Virus record (IMG/VR): IMGVR_UViG_2718218131_000002
DNA: 64,000 nt
Reading direction: 5' to 3' (one strand)
From: a virus
Taxonomy: Duplodnaviria > Heunggongvirae > Uroviricota > Caudoviricetes
A program made the position numbers and the translations under genes. Positions 16,910 to 17,492 of the stretch are shown here, piece after piece. The stretch's first letter is position 1. Each line of letters opens with the position of its first letter. Under the pieces are notes generated by a model. That model saw only the letters and a program-made list of their open reading frames with translations. It was not told the DNA's origin and did no database searches.

Positions 16910-17254
16910 ATGACTCAAAACTATGAACTGATTGTGAAAGGGATCCGCAATTTTGAGAATAAAGTTACGGTAACTTTAGCGTTACGGGACAAAAAACGCT
17001 TTGACGGTGAAATTTTTGACCTGGACATCTCGCTGGACCGTGTTGAAGGTGCCGCGCTGGAGTTTTATGAGGCAGCAGCCAGAAGGAGCATCAGACAGGT
17101 CTTCCTGGATGTTGCTGCCGGGTTATGTGAAGGGGATGAGCAGTCACCGGAAAAGCGCCCCATAATTTTAGAGGCGCAGGGTGTGTGGATAACCTACAAA
17201 GGAAAACTGCCGGGAAGAATTACTGGTTCACTGAAGACTCCGCCGAAATGGTAA
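16910..17254 (+). CDS. Hypothetical protein inserted between holin and endolysin
   Basis: 114-aa ORF 4 nt after the holin stop; no recognised motif. Confidence 0.4.
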   Translation: MTQNYELIVKGIRNFENKVTVTLALRDKKRFDGEIFDLDISLDRVEGAALEFYEAAARRSIRQVFLDVAAGLCEGDEQSPEKRPIILEAQGVWITYKGKLPGRITGSLKTPPKW

Positions 17255-17492
17255 TTTCACCAGCATATTTTTCTTCCAGTAATGCCGCCAGCCACTTGAA
17301 AGAATTTTGTTGTTCCTGGGACCATTTGGGGTTGCGTGACTCAAGCAGAAGCGATGCCAGTGTTGGTTGCATTTGTTCTCTGGGAATTGAGAAGGCCAGA
17401 TATGAAAATGCAACAGTGAGAGCATTTACATCATCCCGAAGCCTGGAAATGCAGTCGAGCAACTCCTGTAGAGAAATGGTGTTATTGTCCAT
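17220..17492 (-). CDS. Hypothetical protein (90 aa), convergent with the preceding ORF
   Basis: Minus-strand ORF inside the lysis cassette; no recognised motif. Confidence 0.3.
   Translation of the reverse strand: MDNNTISLQELLDCISRLRDDVNALTVAFSYLAFSIPREQMQPTLASLLLESRNPKWSQEQQNSFKWLAALLEEKYAGEITISAESSVNQ

Follow-up and report, generated by a model that had tools for sequence, protein, structure and literature searches.

Two open reading frames (ORFs) separate the holin gene from the lysozyme gene in a lambdoid lysis cassette: are they an accessory unit inserted there, and what might their products do? The question is raised by IMG/VR virus record IMGVR_UViG_2718218131_000002, of which a stretch of 64,000 nt (hereafter the window) was analysed. 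In this stretch, a 114-aa plus-strand ORF (ORF1) and a 90-aa minus-strand ORF (ORF2) lie between the genes for a putative pinholin (S) and a lysozyme (R). An earlier reading of the sequence alone (the original prediction) described them as two unknown genes inserted into the cassette, one of them under late transcription. The geometry was borne out: the ATG of ORF1 at 16910 begins 4 nt past the holin TAA, which ends at 16905; ORF2 (17492 to 17220) converges on ORF1, with coordinates matching the ORF listing; and the separation of holin and endolysin, put at about 700 bp, measures 692 bp from the holin stop to the lysozyme start. The insertion claim stood for ORF2, hereafter orf90, which is an insertion relative to sister phages, but not for ORF1, which is the named gene ydfR and a regular member of such cassettes. 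Both are conserved, genuine genes between S and R, so that the lack of conservation named as a refutation of the prediction was not seen, but they are not one unit.

Identity and structure of ydfR

The product of ORF1 belongs to the DUF1327 family. Its residues 1-112 align with positions 1-92 of the 93 positions of PF07041 at 143.9 bits against a cut-off of 25 (E 1.8e-42), and the NCBI Prokaryotic Genome Annotation Pipeline (PGAP), whose annotation was transferred from an identical E. coli chromosome record to window coordinates, calls it a "YdfR family protein" (WP_001774431.1). The gene is a regular late-gene member of S21-holin cassettes and not an odd insertion. It lies in the slot between an S21-type holin gene and a lysozyme gene and is co-oriented with them, just as in K-12 Qin (essQ-ydfR-rrrQ-rzpQ). 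A tblastn search found it in 101 phage records, including Shiga toxin (Stx) phages of the Stx1a, Stx2c and Stx2 (Stx2a) types and other E. coli phages, and it is present in that slot between S and R in at least 1600 complete E. coli genomes. Pairwise ratios of nonsynonymous to synonymous substitution rates (dN/dS) were 0.22-0.48. The Shine-Dalgarno-like sequence of ydfR is invariant across three cassette variants, and a promoter/terminator scan detected no terminator-like site between the holin gene and ydfR. With the same strand, a start 4 nt after S and the ribosome-binding site inside S, ORF1 is placed to ride the late transcript as had been proposed, and its late expression is suggested by this position. 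The coordinates of these and other features are presented in Table 1.

Table 1 Features of the lysis cassette and its surroundings in the window
Feature	Position	Strand	Basis and remarks
Three tRNAs (Ile, Arg, Arg)			PGAP; phage-borne
SASA-type esterase	14687-16540		PGAP
S21-type class II holin, 71 aa, putative pinholin	16690-16905	+	PF04971; phrog_20/9876; PGAP "class II holin family protein"
Shine-Dalgarno-like GGGGAGAG of ydfR	16895-16902	+	Within the last holin codons
ydfR, YdfR/DUF1327 family protein, 114 aa	16910-17254	+	PF07041; phrog_406; PGAP WP_001774431.1
ydfR N-terminal domain, ~residues 1-68, predicted beta-beta-beta-alpha	16910-17113	+	DNA/protein alignment with K-12 Qin ydfR; AlphaFold2
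ydfR C-terminal module, ~residues 69-112, absent from K-12 YdfR	17114-17246	+	Alignment
Convergent 3' overlap of ydfR and orf90, 35 bp	17220-17254	Both	
orf90, 90 aa	17220-17492	-	Unnamed family phrog_2411; PGAP hypothetical protein WP_024234348.1
~290-bp insertion relative to S-ydfR-R phages	17247-17535		Carries orf90 codons 1 to ~81 and 5' region; alignments
Shine-Dalgarno GAGGA of orf90	17499-17503	-	6 nt before ATG
Weak candidate orf90 promoter, TTGCCT (17537-17532)-N19-TACAAT (17512-17507)	17507-17537	-	Read by eye from the alignment
Perfect 7-bp inverted repeat CAGCCTG-N6-CAGGCTG	17525-17544		Right edge of the insertion; sequence
Lysozyme, 177 aa, signal-anchor-release (SAR)-like N-terminus	17598-18131	+	PF00959 (E 1.9e-25); phrog_7 endolysin
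Rz	18621-19088		PGAP; embedded Rz/Rz1 pair

How far does the window protein follow K-12 YdfR (b1555, UniProt P76160)? The two share the family, the slot and strand between essQ and rrrQ, and about 68 N-terminal residues, with an overall identity of 70%, whereas the last ~45 residues are unrelated, and window YdfR carries there a module reading ...PEKRPIILEAQ-VWITYKGKLPGRITGSLKTPP. This C-terminal module is near-identical in DNA in Stx2_EH2201 despite the diverged N-terminal half of the gene in that phage. A further difference is that the ydfR stop of Qin overlaps the rrrQ start, with no spacer and no reverse gene. In the window, the ~50 nt preceding the start of R still show homology with K-12 ydfR, namely with its 3' end. 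Since the C-terminal module is missing from K-12 and a remnant of the K-12 ydfR 3' end stands before R, the junction looks like the product of nested insertions into a K-12-like ancestor. On these alignments, ydfR is a mosaic gene: compared with the K-12-type cassette, its C-terminal module appears as a nested insertion; the ancestor would have had ydfR overlapping R, and the window type would have arisen from it by nested insertions.

The AlphaFold2 model of YdfR has strands at residues 5-14, 18-27 and 34-43 and a helix at 50-74, with block means of the predicted local distance difference test (pLDDT) of 64-86 over residues 1-70; the C-terminal module is modeled with low confidence (pLDDT<50 for residues 72-114). 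The protein has no hydrophobic segment and is predicted to be soluble.

Coding strand and product of orf90

A second question is which strand is coding between ydfR and R, as a plus-strand ORF of 115 aa at 17185-17532 is fully open over the orf90 insert in the window. Among close relatives the ratio of nonsynonymous to synonymous polymorphism (pN/pS) is 0.27 in this frame and 0.33 in the minus frame; the plus-frame value is low because the two frames share wobble positions, and the case is a caution for dN/dS-based gene calling in overlapping antisense frames. More diverged copies settle the matter. At 76-86% protein identity one or two stop codons break the plus-strand ORF, whereas the minus frame stays open at exactly 90 codons in homologues with as little as 76% identity, and the pairwise dN/dS of orf90 is 0.13-0.21, which indicates purifying selection. 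The intact minus frame, the broken plus frame and the low dN/dS identify the minus strand as the coding strand. The plus-strand ORF, which has no plausible start within the insert, was rejected as a real gene. The Shine-Dalgarno sequence of orf90 is kept as GAGGA or AAGGA in all ten aligned upstream regions. At the other end, the last nine codons (17220-17246) are read antisense through conserved ydfR sequence, and the 35-bp overlap of the two genes had not been mentioned in the original prediction.

The orf90 product matches phrog_2411 over its full length (positions 1-90 of 90, E 8.9e-58) and shows the family's length (~83-97 aa) and central AFSYLAF...ES motif in the alignments. Searches of Pfam (even at E<=10), NCBIfam and PADLOC gave no match, and nothing on orf90 was found in the literature. 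Orf90 is acidic (isoelectric point, pI, 4.5), has no transmembrane segment and is predicted to be soluble. Its AlphaFold2 model (pLDDT 81.7) is a three-helix bundle with helices at residues 8-34, 38-52 and 59-77, followed by a predicted disordered tail, residues 81-90, that is largely encoded in the ydfR overlap.

Insertion of orf90 and a recombination hot spot at the ydfR/R junction

Is orf90, then, part of the same unit as ydfR? Its ~290-bp block is absent from phage 640R1, Stx2_EH2201 and K-12 Qin and is present only in the window type, and the G+C content of the insertion is 0.44 vs 0.51 for the holin gene, 0.54 for R and 0.53 for Rz. The inverted repeat at its right edge is not conserved in diverged copies, being broken in L091, L013 and others. 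The gene occurs in 1206 of 5426 complete E. coli genomes (22%), always annotated "hypothetical protein", with sequence type ST131 and other extraintestinal pathogenic E. coli strains among the carriers, and in only 3 of 50,697 phage records. Wherever an IMG/VR locus had enough flank on both sides, the order was S-ydfR-orf90(reverse)-R (72/72).

The two genes nevertheless occur independently and do not form one unit. ydfR is common without orf90, both in phages and in K-12 Qin. Conversely, contigs L094-L096 (Logan SRR1101xxxx contigs) have an intact orf90 and have lost the first ~240 bp (~80 codons) of ydfR, the last ~100 bp being left; in L094 the ydfR C-terminal module is retained beside orf90 although the rest of ydfR is gone. 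In these three contigs a short unrelated sequence replaces the lost ydfR start, and downstream of the lysozyme gene, at the place expected for Rz, stands a ParE/ParD-like toxin-antitoxin pair.

Other cargo was found at the same ydfR/R junction (L004, positions 3001-3745, E. coli CP026836; P0089/P0094). In this alternative cassette YdfR is 176-183 aa long with an in-frame helical extension, the 176-aa form being present on 463 contigs, and a different acidic reverse ORF of 88 aa overlaps it convergently by 53 bp. The 88-aa ORF of L004 was considered as an orf90 homologue and rejected, as neither BLASTP nor hhalign found similarity. Because alternative cargo follows the ...SLKTPP end of ydfR, the ydfR/R junction is a recombination hot spot that accepts different inserts. 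Further variants were seen on the R side of orf90. Contigs L089 and L090, from Stx phages, have a second, different lysis module (Phage_holin_8, Phage_holin_3_7 and Peptidase_M15_4) where the lysozyme gene would otherwise follow S-ydfR-orf90, and in L088 R is replaced by an IS66 element, which stands ~45 nt upstream of orf90. These loci adjoin stx genes (RIP and SLT_beta).

Among the checks that the original prediction had suggested, profile searches named ORF1 (DUF1327) and returned only phrog_2411 for orf90, with no Pfam, NCBIfam or fold match. Comparison with Stx-phage cassettes confirmed ydfR as regular, since it is present in Stx1a, Stx2c and Stx2 phages, but the orf90 block was absent from Stx2_EH2201.

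Relatives of orf90 and moron behavior

When 1.84 billion representative proteins were searched exhaustively with an orf90 profile (HMMER), only 20 matches came up, all of them small proteins of the same family or noise, and a broader profile collected ~125 clusters. Relatives outside Escherichia/Shigella, all unnamed, are 81-97 aa long with ~30-45% identity and come from Serratia (many species), Sodalis, Citrobacter, Chania, Gibbsiella and Acerihabitans. A locus search with a narrower family alignment yielded nine loci. Reverse-oriented relatives lie between tail genes M and L in a phage tail region, beside the terminase genes in a phage packaging region and, in a Citrobacter prophage, directly upstream of a cassette of lambda-S-type holin, CHAP endolysin and Rz. 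Several relatives end in short convergent overlaps (7, 14 and 17 bp) with unrelated neighbors; a kinship of these partners with YdfR was considered and rejected, the sequences being unrelated. In the Citrobacter case (L116, C. meridianamericanus, 1965-6347) the relative has 83 aa and 61% identity, the cassette comprises the lambda-S-type holin, the CHAP-domain endolysin and a DUF2514 (Rz-like) gene, and just upstream lie genes for a pertussis-toxin-S1-like ADP-ribosyltransferase and a HicB-like protein.

On the Serratia chromosome the relative is a stand-alone gene, orf92, in the syntenic row pyrC-dinI-orf92-bssS-solA, preceded by the dinI terminator. Its product (e.g., P0223, P0218; 92 aa) resembles Orf90 in length, in the central motif AFSYLAF...ES.N...Q..F and in sequence (37-41% identity among the listed members, 34-41% for most), but the gene is chromosomal, syntenic across species, outside any prophage and antisense to nothing. 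In Serratia loci L108-L114 (gene at 5001-5279) the row reads rne ... ABM-domain gene, pyrC, dinI, orf92, bssS, solA; that rne is nearby probably reflects no more than local synteny. A LexA-like CTG-N10-CAG site, CTGAATACTTTAACAG, overlaps the region just before the Shine-Dalgarno sequence of orf92 in the S. proteamaculans group and is absent in S. rubidaea; no LexA box was found upstream of orf90 in the window.

Phage morons, as described by Hendrix and colleagues, are extra, independently transcribed genes in late operons, such as lambda bor (reverse, next to Rz) and lom. Like them, orf90 is an extra gene, placed where related phages have its two neighbors side by side; it deviates from the flanking genes in composition (G+C), is oriented opposite to the late operon and has relatives at other late-operon sites; its placement is comparable to that of the reverse-oriented bor homologue after Rz in phage 640R1. 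It differs from them in having no recognizable promoter beyond one weak candidate and no terminator of its own, in encoding a predicted soluble, cytoplasmic helical protein rather than an envelope lipoprotein or outer-membrane protein, and in having its 3' end overprinted on the neighboring ydfR. A self-contained small gene placed backwards at varying late-operon sites behaves as a moron, and orf90, which is mobile and has a chromosomal counterpart in Serratia, is most likely such a moron.

Much of this was expected. ydfR was already named, orf90 was already annotated as hypothetical with a PHROG family, and the arrangement is ordinary in E. coli; accessory genes and morons are expected in lambdoid late operons, and the present case is routine mosaicism at a hot spot. 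What is added is the coding strand of orf90, established together with purifying selection, its mobile, reverse-oriented distribution and Serratia counterpart, the proposed nested-insertion history of the ydfR/R junction, and the link from ydfR to a recent report of RNase E interaction. As a mobile moron with a Serratia counterpart, orf90 also offers a starting point for an unannotated family of small Enterobacterales proteins.

Possible functions of YdfR and Orf90

These data raise the question of what the two proteins do. Gene identity, conservation, purifying selection, insertion boundaries, gene independence and distribution are observations; of these we hold gene identity, conservation and insertion status close to certain, and the functional parts of what follows we infer. 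A single paper was found in the literature that bears on YdfR function (PMC13232886, RNA Biol 2026). It reports a two-hybrid interaction between residues 1-72 of K-12 YdfR and RNase E 1-597. With the original 1-72 clone there were further signals, one for full-length Rne and a weaker one for RNase G, and the full-length YdfR fusion with a short linker gave one with the Rne 1-597 construct only. Strep-tagged YdfR pulled down Rne 1-598 plus a DNase-resistant nucleic acid. The same paper found K-12 ydfR to be silent in standard growth conditions and overproduction of the protein to be non-toxic, with no growth defect (PMC13232886).

The RNase E-contacting segment of K-12 YdfR (1-72) is the part that is conserved in the window protein; by homology, the N-terminal half of RNase E, RNA or both are the most likely ligands of the latter. 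Translated directly after the holin from a Q-antiterminated late transcript, YdfR would be a soluble cytoplasmic protein whose small beta-beta-beta-alpha N-terminal domain would bind RNA, the membrane-proximal N-terminal half of RNase E, or both, and it would act late in infection on RNA handling, not on the envelope. It does not have a canonical holin, endolysin or spanin function, because sister cassettes have other modules at this junction and K-12 YdfR is non-toxic when overproduced. For Orf90, no informative match is available, and for a protein of such size and shape the default reading is that it binds another protein, which is most likely how it acts. Its gene, a ~290-bp cassette of lower G+C content inserted backwards at the ydfR/R junction, would be expressed from the prophage independently of the late operon, most likely in the lysogen. 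This combination, a late RNA-handling YdfR that binds RNase E and/or RNA and an independently expressed moron encoding a protein-binding Orf90, is the reading that we favor with moderate confidence.

Several results weigh against it. The RNase E interaction comes from two-hybrid and pull-down assays, the authors allow that a contaminant may have bound the RNA, and few transcripts were altered by ydfR overexpression (PMC13232886); moreover, the protein in those assays was the K-12 homologue, with an unrelated C-terminal third. Fold searches and a PDB sequence-profile search with Orf90 returned no informative fold or sequence match. Upstream of orf90 a consensus scan found no promoter. The sole candidate has an over-long 19-nt spacer and an implied leader of only ~9 nt, although seven of the ten aligned copies share its -10-like TACAAT without a change. 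The scan also found no terminator-like hairpin on the minus strand from 17220 to 16910, and orf90 ends inside ydfR.

A PDB sequence-profile search with the YdfR family gave no match, and Dip of phiKZ (gp37, PDB 5ft0) has no sequence relationship to YdfR, its match lying below any homology threshold with a low-confidence query model. Dip binds the scaffold region of RNase E and inhibits the degradosome, unlike K-12 YdfR, which maps to the N-terminal half.

If the binding of RNase E and RNA reported for K-12 YdfR extends to phage YdfR, an RNA-decay component would be added to the module of lysis and toxin release, as ydfR sits in the lysis cassettes of Stx1- and Stx2-converting phages and in prophages of a large share of E. 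coli genomes. A more far-reaching form of the favored reading seems doubtful to us: YdfR would be an RNase E modulator that, bound to the enzyme's membrane-tethered N-terminal half and to RNA, tunes how stable the long late transcript (stx/nanS-p, lysis and morphogenesis genes) is or how it is processed, and orf90 a lysogen-expressed copy of a stress-locus gene that shields R. Made together with the holin, YdfR would then couple RNA decay to the lysis clock; orf90 would be the prophage copy of a small stress-locus protein gene (the Serratia dinI-orfX-bssS slot), and its antisense transcription would shield R from read-through.

Could the two proteins instead regulate lysis timing? YdfR, Orf90 or both might bind the cytoplasmic face of the pinholin, e.g., its basic C-terminal tail, or control the release of the SAR endolysin. 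This is just as doubtful, even though it would account for the strict placement between S and R in at least 1600 genomes, the translational adjacency of ydfR to S, the acidity of Orf90 (pI 4.5) beside a basic holin tail and the Citrobacter relative directly upstream of a holin of a different type. A genetic screen, known to us as cited in PMC13232886, also links K-12 ydfR to envelope integrity. Other orf90 relatives, however, lie among tail genes, beside terminase genes or in the Serratia dinI-bssS chromosomal slot; both proteins are predicted to be soluble and cytoplasmic, whereas the SAR endolysin works in the periplasm; and orf90 runs against the lysis genes, on the other strand. We also count against it phage 21, in which S and R are presumably adjacent without ydfR and orf90. 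Finally, overproduced K-12 YdfR produced neither a growth nor a lysis phenotype (PMC13232886).

A less likely alternative is that orf90 works mainly as an RNA, antisense to the ydfR 3' end and, if unterminated, to S, with the ORF being secondary; transcriptional interference or an RNA duplex would damp leaky lysis-gene expression in the lysogen. Protein-level constraint argues strongly otherwise (dN/dS 0.13-0.21, with all diverged copies at exactly 90 codons), as does the retention of the family at 30-45% identity across genera where the DNA can no longer be aligned. The structure prediction for Orf90 is confident, and the Serratia gene is antisense to nothing. The convergent orientation with its 35-bp overlap, the lack of a terminator-like site downstream of orf90 within ydfR and the 7-, 14- and 17-bp convergent overlaps of relatives in other phages are the features that this explanation would cover.

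Still less probable is a two-gene system (toxin/antitoxin, effector/immunity or regulator/target) held together by selection. In E. coli, orf90 is nearly always beside ydfR (72 of the 72 loci with sufficient flanks), the genes physically overlap and even L094 keeps the ydfR C-terminal module next to orf90, as such a system would predict. Yet ydfR is widespread without orf90 (101 phage records vs 3 with orf90), orf90 remains intact where the first ~80 codons of ydfR are lost, its distant relatives have unrelated convergent partners, and an unrelated 88-aa reverse gene takes the same site in another variant. Neither protein matches PADLOC or the toxin and antitoxin families of Pfam, so that the pair lacks the traits of a toxin-antitoxin or defense pair as well as the constant co-occurrence, and K-12 YdfR is non-toxic (PMC13232886).

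That orf90 is a chance or "shadow" ORF, antisense to a real coding strand or in a non-coding spacer, is highly improbable and already largely refuted: it could appeal to the open plus frame at 17185-17532 and to the equally low pN/pS of both frames (0.27 and 0.33) in close relatives, but in the copies at 76-86% identity the plus frame acquires its one or two stops and the minus frame stays at 90 codons, only the minus ORF has a plausible start (an ATG with GAGGA 6 nt upstream), and homologues of 30-45% identity from other genera keep the length and the motif.

Cassette layout and neighboring genes

The window derives from an E. coli lambdoid prophage, and its segment 16600-18200 (1.6 kb) is 100% identical to the chromosomes of several chicken E. 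coli isolates, e.g., O80:H26 EC-107. The pinholin/SAR-endolysin context proposed for the cassette agrees with the profile and sequence evidence. The holin matches PF04971 (Phage_holin_2_1, P21 S family; E 1e-32, 112 bits), has a strongly hydrophobic segment at residues 37-53, starts at 16690 according to PGAP and ends with a TAA at 16903-16905, and is a putative pinholin. In the lysozyme, whose start is at 17598, residues 8-24 (GLSAAVLALIGAGTSAP) are weakly hydrophobic (Kyte-Doolittle mean ~1.4) with 65% Gly/Ala/Ser/Thr, which is of SAR type by sequence. With its P21 S-family holin, SAR-like lysozyme and embedded Rz/Rz1, the cassette resembles S21-R21-Rz/Rz1 of phage 21 but is interrupted twice, by ydfR and orf90 between S and R and by ~490 bp with two small membrane ORFs between R and Rz.

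This second insertion (18132-18620) separates R and Rz, which overlap in the sister phages L002 and L004. It contains a strong 13-bp-stem hairpin with A and T runs on either side (18221-18253), terminator-like on both strands, and two plus-strand ORFs at 18287-18469 (60 aa) and 18482-18613 (43 aa) with one predicted transmembrane helix each; both are hypothetical in PGAP and belong to phrog_1115 and related PHROGs without a functional label. An Rfam scan of 16000-19300 gave nothing significant.

On the other side of the cassette, a terminator-like hairpin (12 pairs) with a T run lies at 16623-16651 between the esterase gene and the holin gene, ~40 nt before the holin start, within the expected Q-antiterminated late transcript. 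A relative of the esterase in a Stx2a phage is annotated yjhS, 9-O-acetyl-N-acetylneuraminic acid deacetylase. The slot between the three phage tRNAs and the esterase gene (13949-14420) contains just a partial pseudogene of 126 bp; we take this slot to be the site of stx in Stx phages. At 19554-21558, 3' of Rz, there are a PerC-family regulator gene, a reverse YlcI/YnfO-family gene and an IS3-family element, with the terminase genes beyond.

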